From the NCBI GenBank assembly GCA_964408285.1, contig CAYOYV010000006.1, positions 31,635 through 95,634 on the forward strand: DNA of 64,000 bases. Direction: 5' to 3'. This document shows positions 6,898 through 37,648 of the stretch, piece by piece; position 1 is the first letter of the stretch, and each line of letters opens with the position of its first letter. This stretch comes from an uncultured Nitrososphaerota archaeon. Its GTDB lineage: Archaea; Thermoproteota; EX4484-205; JAAOZO01. Position numbers and translations under genes: made by a program. A model generated the notes under the pieces. It had not been told where the DNA came from. It did not search any database and was given only the letters and a program-made list of their open reading frames with translations.

Positions 6898-7172
6898 TCT
6901 CTGTTGGAAGAATATGCAAGAAATTGGCAGGAAGAGATTCCGGGCAGAGGTGCGTGATCATCGACGTATTGGACACAAACTTCATAATGATTACTGGCCC
7001 AAAAAAGATCACAGGAGTCAGAAGGAGAAAGGTGAACATGAATCATGTCTTGCCGCTTGGGAAATCAATAAGAGTGAGGAAGAATGCCTCGGACGATGCA
7101 GTTGCCTCTGCGCTGGAGCGGAGGAAGCTAATACCATTCATGAAGGGTGAGGATGTTGAACCTGCTGAATGA
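6879..7172 (+). CDS. rpl14e: 50S ribosomal protein L14e
   Basis: VGRICKKLAGRDSG, ITGPKKITGVRRRKVNMNHV. Confidence 0.95.
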   Translation: MAQLALISVGRICKKLAGRDSGQRCVIIDVLDTNFIMITGPKKITGVRRRKVNMNHVLPLGKSIRVRKNASDDAVASALERRKLIPFMKGEDVEPAE

Positions 7173-8160
7173 GCTGAGAAAACCTAGGAGGCTTGTCATA
7201 AGGGAAGAGTCAACGACATCTTGGGATTATGGCTGGAACCCGAATCTAAGACGATTGGATCAATTGGTGGACTCTGGCGTAATAGTCCTTGACAAACAGA
7301 GCGGCCCCACCAGTCATGATTTTGTGGCAACCCTGAAGAGACTCCTGAATCTCAAAAAAGCCGGTCACAGCGGGACCCTTGAGTGAATTCGGGGAAATCC
7401 TGGCGTGACTGGAGTACTAATCGCGCTTTCCGGAGCAGCCACAAACCTGGTCCCATACTTGCATAGGCTAGGAAAGGAATATGTCGGAGTTGGGGAGCTG
7501 CATTCCGACGTATCAAAATCCAAACTTCAGGAAGCGATGGGTATATTCATAGGGCAGATATTCCAAAGACCCCCTGTTAGGGCTTCGGTCAGCAGGAAGT
7601 TAAGGACAAGATCTGTCTTCTACTTTGACCTTTTGGAATACGAGGATAGACGATTTCTTTTCAGGGTTGGAACGGAAGCAGGTACATACATAAGGAAATT
7701 GATACATGACCTTGGGCTGTTGACTGGATCGGGAGCTCATATGGTTCAGCTTCGAAGGACTAGGGACGGCCCCTTCGGCGAGTCTCAATCACATGGGATG
7801 TGGAGCATCGCCTTGGCCCTTGAGATATATAGATCACGAAATGATGAGACCGAGCTAAGGAAAGTAATACTACCGATAGAATCGGCAATTGCTCTATATC
7901 CATCGATTTATATCAAGGACGGTGCAGTTTCTGCAGTGTGTCATGGCGCTAATCTCTCGATTGGTGGCGTCTCGTCATTTGAGGAACCTGTGGAAAAGGG
8001 AAACGTTGTTTGCGTGAAAACTCTCAAGGGCGAGCTAGTGGCAATGGCCAGGTCAGAGAAGGATTCTCATGGTCTGCTAAATGACAGAACTGGTCTAGCT
8101 GCAATCACCGAGAGGGTTCTAATGGATAGAGGGCTATATCCAAAAATGTGGAGACAATAG
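7153..8160 (+). CDS. cbf5: H/ACA pseudouridine synthase Cbf5, spliced: join(7153..7381,7397..8160), 330 aa
   Basis: DKQSGPTSH, GHSGTL|DPGVTGVL restored by removing a 15-nt intron; EAGTYIRKL and a PUA domain follow. Confidence 0.95.
7382..7396 (+). other. 15-nt BHB intron in cbf5 mRNA
   Basis: Outer helix CGGGA/UCCUG, central helix CCCU/GGGG, bulges UGA and AAA; cutting after the second bulge nucleotides gives GAU (catalytic Asp); contains an in-frame UGA. Confidence 0.92.
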
Positions 8161-33943: not shown

Positions 33944-35311
33944 ATGAGCATACTGATTGTGGATTCGAGGAAGCAGCTCTTCATCGACGATCGCTTTATC
34001 CAGTCATCCCAAGGAGTCGTTTTGTCGGTTAACGAAGCACGGAAATACCAAGAACCGGTCCTCATCGCGGACCGCCCTTGGGAAAGCATGTGCATAGGCG
34101 GCTATAGCACAGTGATGGAGGAGAACGGACTTTACCGCCTGTGGTATGAGGCCTATGCTTCAGACTATAGGGAGGATTATGATGCGAAGCTATGCTATGC
34201 GTTTTCATACGATGGCATTCATTGGGAAAAACCTGCTCTAGGGCAATCTGAATTTCAAGGCTCAAGGGACAACAACATTGTGTTTGACGACTGCCATAAT
34301 TTCGGCTATCATGGCGGAACTGTGTTTAAGGATCCAATAGCCAGCCCTGAGGAAAGATACAAGGTCCTCTACCAAGCCAGGGGAGGAACGCGATCGGATC
34401 AATCCAACGCCTGCATGCGAGGAATATACTCGAAAGACGGAATAAGATGGGTCAAGTACCCAGGCATTCTTGCAGATCACCTAAGCGATACTCAGACTGT
34501 TGTTCACTATGACGAGGATTCAGGCAGATACGTTGGTTACTTCCGAGTCTGGACAGAGAAGGGATATCGTGCCATAGGTCGCTCTGAGACGCCAGATTTC
34601 CTTTGTTGGCCCAGAGACCCAGAATTGATCTTGGCCCCGGATCAAAATGACCCTACAGACATCCACCTATACACGAACGGTTACAGATCCTATCGCGTGG
34701 CCCAAGATGCACATATCTTTGTGATCTCCAGCTTCCATGCGACAACAGATCTCGTTGATGTTCAGCTTGCCACAAGCCGTGATGGTATTTCGTGGCGTAG
34801 ACCTGATCGCCGCCCCCTCATACGCCTTGGAGAGGAAGGGACTTGGGACAGCGGGCAGATCTATGTAGGTGCCGGAACCATAGATAAAGGCAGTGAGCTC
34901 TGGGTCTATTACACCGGATTCAGACATGGACACGGGGAGAACAGGCCGGATGTCATAAGTTACGAGGGAAAAATAGGAATAGCGAAAATTCGAAAGGACG
35001 GGTTCATGTCAGCCGAAGCTGGACCTCAGGGTGGCTTTGTCATGACCCCCCTCCTGAAGTTCTCCGGCAGCCATCTGGAATTGAATTACGATGCCGGAAC
35101 AGAAGGAGAGGTTTCGGTTGAGCTGCTTGGCGAGGATCTCATTCCCATCAGGGCTTTCTCAGGGCCCGATTGTGATCCGCTTCACGGTGATTCAACCACC
35201 AAGACTGTGACATGGAAAGGTAATGACGACTTGGGCCATATTGCCGGAAGACCCACGCACCTCCGCTTCAATATGAGAGATGCCAAGCTCTTCGCGTTCC
35301 ACTTCTTCTGA
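33944..35311 (+). CDS. probable five-bladed beta-propeller glycoside hydrolase-like protein
   Basis: QLFIDD N-terminus, repeated S.DG..W Asp-box-like motifs (SYDGIHW, SKDGIRW, SRDGISW), R.DGF and a beta-sandwich-like C-terminus. Confidence 0.6.
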   Translation: MSILIVDSRKQLFIDDRFIQSSQGVVLSVNEARKYQEPVLIADRPWESMCIGGYSTVMEENGLYRLWYEAYASDYREDYDAKLCYAFSYDGIHWEKPALGQSEFQGSRDNNIVFDDCHNFGYHGGTVFKDPIASPEERYKVLYQARGGTRSDQSNACMRGIYSKDGIRWVKYPGILADHLSDTQTVVHYDEDSGRYVGYFRVWTEKGYRAIGRSETPDFLCWPRDPELILAPDQNDPTDIHLYTNGYRSYRVAQDAHIFVISSFHATTDLVDVQLATSRDGISWRRPDRRPLIRLGEEGTWDSGQIYVGAGTIDKGSELWVYYTGFRHGHGENRPDVISYEGKIGIAKIRKDGFMSAEAGPQGGFVMTPLLKFSGSHLELNYDAGTEGEVSVELLGEDLIPIRAFSGPDCDPLHGDSTTKTVTWKGNDDLGHIAGRPTHLRFNMRDAKLFAFHFF

Positions 35312-35325
35312 TCTTGCGTGCGGAC

Positions 35326-37151
35326 TCACTTCAGGTATCCCCAATAGGGTTCCTTCTGTCTCTTTATCTTGGTTATTTCCTCGATGGCATCCAACATGTC
35401 TTGCGTGGCGAACTGGGACAGGTTCGTCTTTAGGGAAATCGCATCTGAAGCCCTGATCTCAACGTACAATGTCTCTCCTTCCTGCACATTTCTTCCCATG
35501 ACGGCCTCCTTAATGGATATCGACACCTCATCCCCCTTCTTTGCCTCATTGACCGACTGATCCTGCAGCCTTATGGAGTCAATAGCTCCTATTCTTTCGC
35601 CACCTTCACTAATCAAGTTGGAACCTTGTCGCATCAATCCCTTTTCAACCCTTACCCCGAATATGGCTGGTTTGCTCCTCCTAAAGACAAAGCCTGGCAT
35701 TATGAACAGCTTGGCGGGCGTGACCAACTTTGAGAAGAGCTCTTCAGCTGTAGCCTTCTCATAGCTAGTCTTCCAGGAGAAGTATTCATCCATCAGGCCG
35801 TATATGACCTTACCCGTCATTATCCTGACTCCCAAGTCTCTTGCCGCCTCCTCTGCCTCCCCTGTTACGTCTACGTTGAACGCAATTATCACCCTCTGAG
35901 TCATGTCTCCGGATGCCGTTGAGGCGCCAATGACATCCTTCTTGGTTACAGGACCTATATCCGCCATCCTCACCTTGATCGCCTTCGATTGAAGCTCAGG
36001 GACAATCGCCTCAAGCGCCCCCAACGTATCGGCCTTCAGGATTATGCCTTGGATTTCCGTCTTGAACAGGATGGAGGACACCTCTTGCGACAATTCCTCA
36101 ATTGCTCTTCTCTGTTCCTCCAAAGTATTGCAGACTATTACGCTTGAGCCAGCCAGTGCGCCGGCTAGATCTGGGCCACTCAACTTTATTCCGCTGGAGG
36201 CCCTCATCTGTGCAACTGAATCAAACCTGTCCCTGGGGTCGCGTATTTCATCCAATGGCTTAGGAGAAAGAAGGGCCCGAACCTTTGTGACCGTTGGTCC
36301 GGTTAACGTTGTGAGTGCGATGGAATCGCCCACCTTGATGATGCCGTCATATACGATGACGTTTATCGTTGTGCCCAACCCAACATCCTCCGTTACCTCG
36401 AGGACTACGCCCTTGCCCCTGTTCGACTTTGTCTCCAAGGATTTCGTTTGGAAGGACTGAATCATTCCCGACATGACCGCGATCAGTTCCGCGATTCCCT
36501 CTCCCGTCTTAGCGCTGACAGGGACAACTGGATTCTTATCCTTGAAATCACTCAGAGAATAGAACAAATCCGTAGTTAGGCCAAGCTTGGATACCTGCCC
36601 TACGATATCATACAGCTTCTGCTCGAGCAATTTTCTTGTACCTGGTTCCTGCTCCTTGATTGCCTTTAGGAATGAAAGAGAACTGGACGGACGCCAACCT
36701 CTCGTGAGATCAATCTTGTTTGCCGCAATGACGAAAGGAGTCTTTCTTGACCTGAGTATCTCAATAGACTCTATGGTCTGGGGCATGACACCGGCCGTGA
36801 TGTCTATTACAAGGATCGCAAAGTCTGCTATTGATCCCCCCCGTTTTCTCAAATTCATGAACGCTTCATGACCAGGTGTGTCAATTACCAATAGCCCCCC
36901 GATTTTCAGCCTTGAAGCCACTTCAATTCCCTCTATCTGGCCCACGACATCAACCAATGTGTCTAGTGGAAGATATGAGGCCCCAACGTGCTGGGTTTGG
37001 GACGGTTTCTACCGCTATCCCCCCGGCTTCCCTTTTGGCCACTAAGGTGCCTCTTATCTTATCCAGAAGGGACGTCTTGCCATGGTCCACATAGTCCCCA
37101 GACATGCAAGGTATGACCTAGAACCACGACTATGGGTTCCCTTAGGCGCAA
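35326..37151 (-). CDS. infB: translation initiation factor aIF5B (IF2), spliced: complement(join(35326..36996,37016..37090,37113..37151)), 594 aa
   Basis: TTG start with GGGGGGTGA SD; the splice product reads MRLREPIVVVLGH|VDHGKTSLLDKIRGTLVAKREAGGI|TQHVGAS...IDTPGHE...NKID; exons 39+75+1671 nt = 595 codons. Confidence 0.95.
36997..37015 (-). other. 19-nt BHB intron 2 of aIF5B (G2 motif, GGI|TQH)
   Basis: GCGGUAGAAACCGUCCCAA; central helix GGGA/UCCC, bulges UAG and AAA, intron helix CGGU/ACCG, exon helix GGG/CCC. Confidence 0.92.
37091..37112 (-). other. 22-nt BHB intron 1 of aIF5B (G1 P-loop, GH|VDHGKT)
   Basis: ACCUUGCAUGUCUGGGGACUAU; central helix GGUC/GACU, bulges AUA and AUG, intron helix CCU/GGG, exon helix UCUA/UGGA plus CGUGG/CCAUG. 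Confidence 0.9.
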
Positions 37152-37192
37152 ATTATATCACCCCCCAAAACGGCCGAACTACGTCCGTCCGT

Positions 37193-37648
37193 TTAATAAA
37201 CGTATTCTGAAATGGGACTCTTCCAGTCCTGTATCTCGTCCTTCCTGAAAAGTAGGGAGATCTCCTTTGTTGCGATCTCAACCGAATCGGAGCCGTGAAT
37301 AAGGTTCTTTCCTGTGGATAGGGAATAATCTCCTCTGACCGTTCCAGGCTGTGCTTGCAGGAAATCGGTCGCACCGATCATATTCCTGACAACCTTCACA
37401 CAATCGGGTCCCTCCAGAATAAATGCTACTATCGGACCTGTCATCATGAATTCTATAAGTTCATTGAAGAATTGCTTTCCCCTATGTACTGAGTAGAATT
37501 CCTCAAGCATCTGTTTGGATGGTCTAGTCATCTTCAGCCCGATCATCCTAAATCCTTTGTCCTCGAATCTGCGTATTACCTCGCCGATGAGCCCCCTGTA
37601 AACACAGTTCGGCTTAAGCAGCACCAGTGTCCTTTCCTCTTGGACCAA
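37193..37648 (-). CDS. ndk: nucleoside diphosphate kinase
   Basis: ERTLVLLKP, PGTVRGDY, NLIHGSDS. Confidence 0.97.
   Translation of the reverse strand: MVQEERTLVLLKPNCVYRGLIGEVIRRFEDKGFRMIGLKMTRPSKQMLEEFYSVHRGKQFFNELIEFMMTGPIVAFILEGPDCVKVVRNMIGATDFLQAQPGTVRGDYSLSTGKNLIHGSDSVEIATKEISLLFRKDEIQDWKSPISEYVY

Follow-up and report, generated by a model that had tools for sequence, protein, structure and literature searches.

Archaeal introns are removed by protein enzymes: the splicing endonuclease EndA cleaves bulge-helix-bulge (BHB) motifs, and RtcB ligates. A BHB intron in the pre-mRNA of cbf5 was reportedly described by Watanabe in 2002. According to Yokobori 2009 (PMC2738675), splicing had by then been confirmed for cbf5 alone, and the cbf5 intron was found only in Desulfurococcales and Sulfolobales. 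Schwarz 2020 (PMC7714728) adds a BHB intron in the 5' untranslated region (UTR) of HVO_1309 in Haloferax volcanii, with cbf5 otherwise the sole known case in a coding region. Here we describe a 64,000-nucleotide stretch of DNA from an uncultured Nitrososphaerota archaeon (contig CAYOYV010000006.1, positions 31,635 to 95,634; hereafter, the window), in which infB, the gene for the translation initiation factor aIF5B, is interrupted by two short inserts. These are very probably BHB introns spliced from the pre-mRNA of this single-copy gene.

The closest likeness is to the cbf5 intron, which is described as a short, lineage-specific intron within coding sequence, forming a BHB with its exon flanks inside a highly conserved catalytic motif and attributed to a hetero-oligomeric splicing endonuclease, as we propose for infB. 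The infB introns sit in the most invariant codons of their gene, as the cbf5 intron does. They differ in host, where a translation initiation GTPase takes the place of a pseudouridine synthase, in number, with two introns per mRNA lying 75 nt apart and measuring 17 to 36 nt, and in lineage, being found in uncultured relatives of the Brockarchaeota and several other families of the phylum (Candidatus Brockarchaeota is placed in Thermoproteati by NCBI). The HVO_1309 intron is likewise an mRNA substrate of the archaeal splicing endonuclease besides tRNA and rRNA, and its removal is tied to expression. That intron lies in an untranslated leader, and its host is a euryarchaeon whose enzyme is of the homodimer type, whereas here the reading frame itself is cut and the product needs exact ligation. 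The tRNA introns of Thermoproteales and Asgard archaea (PMC11291895 and PMC5829648) share the motif, presumably the enzymes, the very short length and the occurrence of several per gene, but the substrate here is mRNA, and the exon strands of the helices are codons under protein-level selection.

Splicing of HAC1 and XBP1 mRNA by IRE1 in eukaryotes (reviewed in PMC13149111) offers a more distant comparison outside the archaea. There too, a small frame-changing mRNA intron is excised by a structure-reading protein endonuclease, and the product cannot be made unless splicing takes place; in animals the exons are joined by a ligase of the RtcB type. The enzyme is IRE1 rather than EndA, it reads twin stem-loops rather than a BHB, and the stress-regulated switch is a trait of the IRE1 system.

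Two inserts divide infB into three frames

infB lies on the minus strand as three coding pieces in three different frames, with an insert at each boundary (hyphens within motifs mark the proposed splice sites).

37157-37162, minus strand: Shine-Dalgarno-like GGTGAT, read from the sequence, 5 nt 5' of the TTG start
37113-37151, minus strand: infB exon 1, 39 nt, TTG at 37151 plus 12 codons, ending in VVVLGH, the first half of G1/P-loop
37091-37112, minus strand: intron 1, 22 nt, BHB type, between the His and Val codons of GH-VDHGKT
37016-37090, minus strand: infB exon 2, 75 nt, 25 codons, VDHGKTSLLDKIRGTLVAKREAGGI, the rest of G1 and the start of G2/switch I
36997-37015, minus strand: intron 2, 19 nt, BHB type, between the Ile and Thr codons of GGI-TQH
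35326-36996, minus strand: infB exon 3, 556 codons plus stop, from TQHVGA to the C terminus

The list of open reading frames (ORFs) holds only fragments of this gene. Its 543-aa ORF is the 3' part of exon 3 (35326-36957), and the upstream ORFs carry EPIVVVLGH in 37059-37151, with a TTG start, and VDHGKTSLLDKIRGTLVAKREAGGI in 36950-37105. The 543-aa ORF scored 641.2 bits against NCBIfam NF003078, the archaeal IF-2/aIF5B family (TIGR00491 is the same family), where the cut-off is 468; this score is for the exon 3 ORF by itself rather than for the joined protein. The match spans only profile positions 70 to 597 of 598. Because it begins at position 70, the first 69 positions, where G1 and G2 should lie, are absent from the 543-aa ORF. 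Pfam placed GTP_EFTU, IF-2 and GTP_EFTU_D4 on exon 3.

A script that joined the exons by coordinates produced a 1785-nt reading frame of 594 codons and a terminal stop, free of internal stops. Removal of both inserts rebuilt GHVDHGKT and GGITQH. The 38 N-terminal residues that carry G1 and G2 and are lacking from exon 3 come from exons 1 and 2, which align without gaps to intact relatives and with the same motif spacing. The amino acids of exon 1 are unchanged across relatives although third positions vary widely, and the arrangement of GGTGAT and TTG recurs in three of them (L008-L010).

Both inserts fit the BHB motif

With pairs counted from the proposed splice sites, each insert forms a BHB with its exon flanks.

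37115-37122, minus strand: BHB 1, 5' strands; outer UCUA 37122-37119, central GGUC 37118-37115, followed by bulge 1 at 37114-37112
37086-37096, minus strand: BHB 1, 3' strands; central GACU 37096-37093, bulge 2 at 37092-37090, outer UGGA 37089-37086
36993-37024, minus strand: BHB 2, whole; outer GGG 37024-37022 with CCC 36995-36993, central GGGA 37021-37018 with UCCC 37002-36999, bulges at 37017-37015 and 36998-36996

In intron 1 the central helix is GGUC/GACU, the bulges are AU-A and AU-G, the outer helix has 4 bp and the inner helix has 3 bp (CCU/GGG). In intron 2 the central helix is GGGA/UCCC, the bulges are UA-G and AA-A, the outer helix has 3 bp (with 2 more past a mismatch), and the inner helix of 4 bp closes the hairpin CGGU-AGAA-ACCG. 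The position at which EndA cuts within the bulge is well established, and cuts past the second base of the bulge on both sides yield exactly the frame-restoring junctions in both introns. The junction of intron 1 can slide by up to 2 nt within an AU repeat with the same product; its position is set by the BHB register. A sequence from a single genome is a fit to the BHB and not proof of it, and the nonrandom signal is in the comparative data.

The earlier note on this DNA, which was made from the letters and the ORF list, had described an IF2 of 543 aa lacking G1 and G2, inserts of 22 and 19 nt that are both 1 mod 3 in length, a continuous 594-aa product from a TTG with a Shine-Dalgarno sequence, and in each insert a 4-bp helix between 3-nt bulges cut past the second bulge base. 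The start of the profile match at position 70 bears out the first of these, the coordinates and lengths proved exact, and the product and both motifs were reproduced here.

Relatives preserve the pairing and vary the bases

Across genomes of the phylum, inserts of 17 to 36 nt at the first site (site 1) and of 17 to 33 nt at the second (site 2) fall at the same codon boundaries as in the window. At site 2, for which 31 sequences were aligned (28 distinct), 95.6% of cells pair, compared with 79.2% after shuffling and 31 to 45% when partners were slid along the sequence. The covariation score was 0.475 against 0.188 for shuffled data, and none of 500 shuffles reached the observed value by either measure. 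Both sides have changed in 8 of the 15 pairs. The central helix is 100% paired, with two positions that flip between G-C and C-G, while the outer and inner helices of the relatives are 98.6% and 89.9% paired. The motif is retained in 15 further site-2 loci, and three more have GAAA/UUUC or GAGA/UCUC, with the exon encoding GEM in place of GGI.

At site 1, 90.9% of cells in 14 sequences pair; the figure falls to 81.6% on shuffling, with none of 500 shuffles reaching the observed value, and to 20 to 53% when partners are slid. The covariation score is 0.336 against 0.161 (again 0 of 500), with double changes in 4 pairs. The signal is weak in the six sequences of the same family taken alone, which 18 of 500 shuffles matched. 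Pairing in the 14 sequences is 98.2% for the central, 89.3% for the outer and 83.3% for the inner helix; the count refers to an alignment of 14 rows without L093 and L094, whose 3' ends were misplaced by MAFFT, and in L095 and L096 the 5' strand of the inner helix is offset by 4 columns, so that its pairs were scored as unpaired. The window itself carries a two-sided change, GGUC/GACU where most relatives have GGCC/GGCU, which puts U-A for C-G and recurs in one other locus (L101).

In the central helix, the intron strand changes along with the exon codons: GGGA pairs with UCCC or UCCU where the exon encodes Gly-Ile, GCCA with UGGU or UGGC where it encodes Ala-Met, and GAAA with UUUC or GAGA with UCUC where it encodes Glu-Met. 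The first Gly codon, whose third base lies in the outer helix, is GGG in all 47 distinct intron-bearing loci but in just 6 of 31 intron-less archaeal loci. Insert lengths occupy all three classes modulo 3. Among the site-2 inserts, 27 distinct ones are a multiple of 3 in length, and all 27 contain an in-frame stop, whereas each of the other two frames has a stop in just 3 or 2 of them. At site 1 four of five such inserts have a stop in frame. In many site-2 inserts the stop is a UAA that combines the final base of the central helix with the two As of the bulge, and in others it lies in the hairpin loop. These stops may reflect selection against translating unspliced mRNA, or they may be a by-product of the motif.

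The two sites are occupied across the phylum

A degenerate pattern of exon, 13 to 40 nt, and exon was used to screen 401 genomes sampled from the phylum for site 2. It matched in 41 genomes, and its reversed control in none; all 41 were inspected, and all lie at the N terminus of infB. This figure is a lower bound, as the pattern misses exon variants such as KEPGEM (L096-L098). The corresponding site-1 pattern was noisy, with 26 genomes matched against 4 for the reversed control. Fifteen of the 26 hold inserts in infB, five in the window's family and ten across five other families. Ten matches were judged not intron-like by their matched strings alone (G217, G229, G163, G174, G246, G063, G042, G401, G406 and G219), some of them having a second GH directly before the VD..GK codons, and G347 was left outside both classes.

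All 26 genomes of the window's order were searched, and 25 loci were fetched and scored. Both inserts are present in the window's genus and in genus g2 (4 genomes); site 1 alone is filled in genus g3 (2 genomes); site 2 alone is filled in genera g4 and g5 (3 genomes) and in 1 of 16 scored genomes of genus g6, the remaining 15 of which have neither. In family f11, with 32 genomes searched, a site-2 insert of 22 to 33 nt occurs in 26 of 29 readable loci and is absent in 3, and a site-1 insert was found in none of the 29. Both sites are occupied in three genomes of two other families, where the site-2 exons encode GEM. Among the 83 scorable loci of 95 collected, an insert is present at site 2 alone in 43, at site 1 alone in 8 and at both sites in 7, and 25 are free of inserts at either; the 95 were partly picked by the patterns, and prevalence is estimated from the 401-genome figures only. 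By this survey the split is not peculiar to the window's genome and is spread over at least 10 families of the phylum. In-match stops in infB of L019, L020, L028 and L029 were considered as further introns and rejected, as tblastn alignments ran unbroken over residues 39 to 592 or 3 to 594.

The inserts are in the DNA of a sole, selected infB

The window belongs to contig C6 of a 1.82-Mb, 46-contig, metagenome-type assembly that is 93.7% complete. Logan contigs from four other DNA runs, belonging to four studies, cover one or both inserts with zero gaps, and an insert-free joint was not seen in the contigs of those four runs.

36637-37400: X3 record 2
36840-37366: X4 record 5
36600-37120: X7 record 12
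36600-37042: X5 record 9

Other genomes that were assembled independently, two single-contig ones among them (G032 and G039), carry homologous inserts as well. A second infB was not found in the 93.7%-complete genome, the only other match being a different GTPase at E = 2e-4. Exons 1 and 2 differ from those of relative L006 at 19 of 99 nt, 18 of them third positions, and at none of 33 amino acids; L007 likewise shows 19 of 99 nt changed and no amino-acid change in 33, and the other relatives compared are similar. Judged by these substitutions, exons 1 and 2 are under purifying selection and are not decaying.

One 277-nt contig of run X4 matches exon 1 (37113-37162, with 5 differences) and then continues in unlike letters. 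Read by eye, its reverse complement seems to pass through another insert, about 22 nt long and of different sequence, before exon 2 begins, which points to a relative in the same community whose intron 1 differs.

Splicing enzymes and tRNA introns of the genome

Two EndA paralogs, of 194 and 217 aa, were found in the genome, both above the TIGR00324 cut-off and both with the N-terminal and the catalytic-type C-terminal Pfam domain. Compared with fused alpha'2 models, one paralog aligns to the C-terminal half; the other aligns to the N-terminal half and also weakly matches a beta-subunit model (E = 4.9e-7, below cut-off). The pair fits, without proving, the two-subunit, broad-specificity (alpha-beta)2 type of enzyme. 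RtcB is present as a single, stop-free open frame of 494 aa (PF01139, 560.7 bits).

ARAGORN identified 21 tRNA genes in the genome, 13 of them with introns, and many tRNAs may be hidden by noncanonical or multiple introns. One ARAGORN intron of 1514 nt is probably spurious.

A splicing model for aIF5B and its alternatives

In the model that we favor, each insert would fold together with the exon sequence on either side, so that a 4-bp helix with a 3-nt bulge at each end lies between an outer helix and an inner hairpin. A two-subunit EndA (alpha and beta) would cut past the second base of each bulge, RtcB would ligate the exons, and the spliced mRNA would be translated from the TTG into a complete 594-aa GTPase. 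Unspliced mRNA should give no functional factor because both inserts shift the frame, and in relatives the inserts that are divisible by 3 contain in-frame stops. The cell most likely must splice infB mRNA before making aIF5B. The introns most likely persist since the exon halves of the BHB are near-invariant G1/G2 codons, and only there is the sequence constant for long enough.

The earlier note had read infB as a multi-intron protein-coding gene that makes initiation dependent on mRNA splicing. This is supported at the level of sequence, from which we infer cleavage and ligation in vivo and the enzymes responsible, as well as anything said here of splicing efficiency or regulation. The note had also considered an assembly artefact, an intact second infB and a decaying copy, and had proposed a comparison of infB from related genomes for the introns and for compensatory changes. 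The gap-free contigs of four other public DNA runs, the search of the 93.7%-complete genome and the 33 of 33 amino acids kept against 19 of 99 nt changed speak to the first three, and many genomes do have inserts at these two sites, where paired bases have changed in a compensatory way. Finally, the note knew of no description of an aIF5B intron, in agreement with our search of searchable open-access full texts, supplements excluded, which found no report of an intron in aIF5B/infB. The infB introns would thus be an addition, with no prior description found, to the cbf5-type class of BHB introns in archaeal pre-mRNA.

Several results weigh against this interpretation. Free-energy folding gave no signal relative to shuffled sequences (z = -1.68 for insert 1 and +0.09 for insert 2). 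The canonical BHB of intron 1, at -4.9 kcal/mol, is not the minimum-free-energy (MFE) structure, which lies at -11.1 kcal/mol, a gap so wide that formation of the motif would depend on the enzyme or other factors. For intron 2 the values are -13.0 and -16.0 kcal/mol, the MFE fold being the same motif one register off. Some site-1 inserts of other families (L092, L093 and L094) have one central-helix mismatch. The compared sequences are kin, so that shuffle statistics overstate independence and the codon and stop contrasts ignore kinship; the slid-partner controls, which keep relatedness, agree in direction with the shuffles. The EndA pair was judged by its profile matches. Of the 13 sequencing runs listed as holding the stretch, none is on record as RNA.

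Each alternative has to account for the same observations. Inserts that exist only in the assembly or the sequencing, and not in the organism's DNA, are conceivable in a metagenome-type assembly of 46 contigs, but the contigs of four other runs carry them gap-free and independent assemblies carry homologous ones; such an artefact is refuted as far as contigs can show, and we give it next to no chance. A decaying pseudogene, or a cell that uses only the N-terminally truncated 543-aa protein, would agree with what gene callers report, which is just the 543-aa ORF, and with atlas clusters named IF-2 of 514 to 558 aa. A translational GTPase without P-loop and switch I, both absent from the 543-aa ORF, should neither bind nor hydrolyze GTP. 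With this the sole infB of the genome, its first two exons conserved in all 33 amino acids despite the nucleotide changes, and the same split in dozens of genomes of at least 10 families, we consider decay or truncation highly improbable.

Two further alternatives take the inserts as real. The ribosome might pass over both of them by bypass or frameshifting, with no RNA splicing, and their shortness, their place within coding sequence and the stem-loop in each are features of known bypass elements such as T4 gene 60, which likewise has a short untranslated gap within its coding sequence. The T4 bypass is ribosomal and needs matched take-off and landing codons; these were looked for at both infB inserts and not found, the codons being CAU and UAU at insert 1 and AUA and CAA at insert 2. 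Moreover, length (17 to 36 nt) and loop sequence drift among relatives, but the 4-bp helix and the 3-nt bulges are constant, which fits the ruler of an endonuclease and not that of a ribosome. The intron strand of the central helix tracks the exon codons (GGGA/UCCC, GCCA/UGGY and GAAA/UUUC), and an essential gene would pay heavily for two such events within 40 codons. Recoding is accordingly a very poor candidate. It is just as hard to believe that EndA cuts these motifs chiefly to destroy or throttle the mRNA, as a processing or decay site rather than for ligation. EndA does process nonintron BHBs in rRNA precursors and in a 5' UTR (Schwarz 2020, PMC7714728). Yet the sole infB could never yield a factor with both G1 and G2 if its pieces were not ligated. 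Frame and motifs are rebuilt at the junctions with single-nucleotide precision, and exons 1 and 2 are under selection at the protein level.

A cbf5 insert and a search for further mRNA introns

The window also contains cbf5 (7147-8160, plus strand), which appears as two ORFs in the same frame, 7147-7386 and 7405-8160, split by 15 nt at 7382-7396. The insert contains an in-frame TGA, and its removal restores GTL-DPGVTG. The ORFs match the CBF5 profile (TIGR00425) at positions 4 to 70 and 74 to 322 of 322, with the insert inside GTL-DP. Its BHB has a central helix of CCCU/GGGG and an outer helix of 5 bp, the inner helix having just 1 contiguous pair. This insert, likened to the known intron by host gene and motif and not by insertion site, would widen the range of cbf5 introns beyond Desulfurococcales and Sulfolobales.

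A genome-wide screen recovered the cbf5 insert and is without power to find or exclude others. It yielded 57,503 loose BHB candidates, and a filter for frame merging passed 2838 at real and 2795 at random positions, which is no enrichment. Nor was there enrichment in a strict subset, with 152 real candidates against 138, 146 and 161 for shifted lengths and 131 and 139 for random positions. Four of the eleven candidates in the window were checked with NCBIfam (last exon bases 14150, 16346, 53905 and 25641), and the signature of a split gene, with halves on adjacent parts of one profile, was seen in none of the four. Candidates 14150 and 25641 have boundaries beside complete genes (mevalonate kinase, and RecJ next to Pcc1), candidate 16346 has glycosyltransferase models on one flank and no family on the other, and candidate 53905 has no family on either flank.

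Implications of split infB genes

In the literature searched, cbf5 has since 2002 been the one protein-coding gene of Archaea with a BHB intron. infB is a second, unrelated, essential host gene, with two introns within 120 nt and the same sites filled in roughly a tenth of the 401-genome sample. Archaeal mRNA splicing would thereby become a recurring phenomenon with a natural comparative set, comprising dozens of variants with covariation of exon and intron. The introns are directly testable in a culture or metatranscriptome of these lineages and would provide defined natural mRNA substrates for broad-specificity EndA. They also raise the question of whether the supply of an initiation factor is coupled to the tRNA-splicing machinery. 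A regulatory role of the introns is possible. A stronger proposal is that aIF5B splicing is a conserved checkpoint rather than a frozen accident: one or two BHB introns set into P-loop and switch I codons, with their frameshifts or in-frame stops retained, would tie supply of this subunit-joining factor to spare EndA and RtcB capacity and tune initiation to tRNA maturation in these intron-rich archaea. We regard this as doubtful. If true, it would be an archaeal counterpart of regulated mRNA splicing of the IRE1/XBP1 type, kept in at least 10 families.

Standard gene callers truncate aIF5B in these genomes. The atlas clusters nearest to the site-2-truncated ORF of one relative (L031) are named "Probable translation initiation factor IF-2" and are 556, 514 and 558 aa long, with 98, 77 and 363 members; their commonest labels are Bathyarchaeota, Thermoproteota and Nitrososphaerota. 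These clusters, compatible by their length with truncation, hint that truncated aIF5B calls may be common in public data. Truncation at the intron, if true of the members, would affect annotation and phylogenies that use aIF5B.

Of the neighboring genes in the window, ndk (37193-37648) precedes infB, and a 455-aa ORF on the plus strand (33944-35311) runs toward the 3' end of the gene, with 14 nt between it and the infB stop codon.

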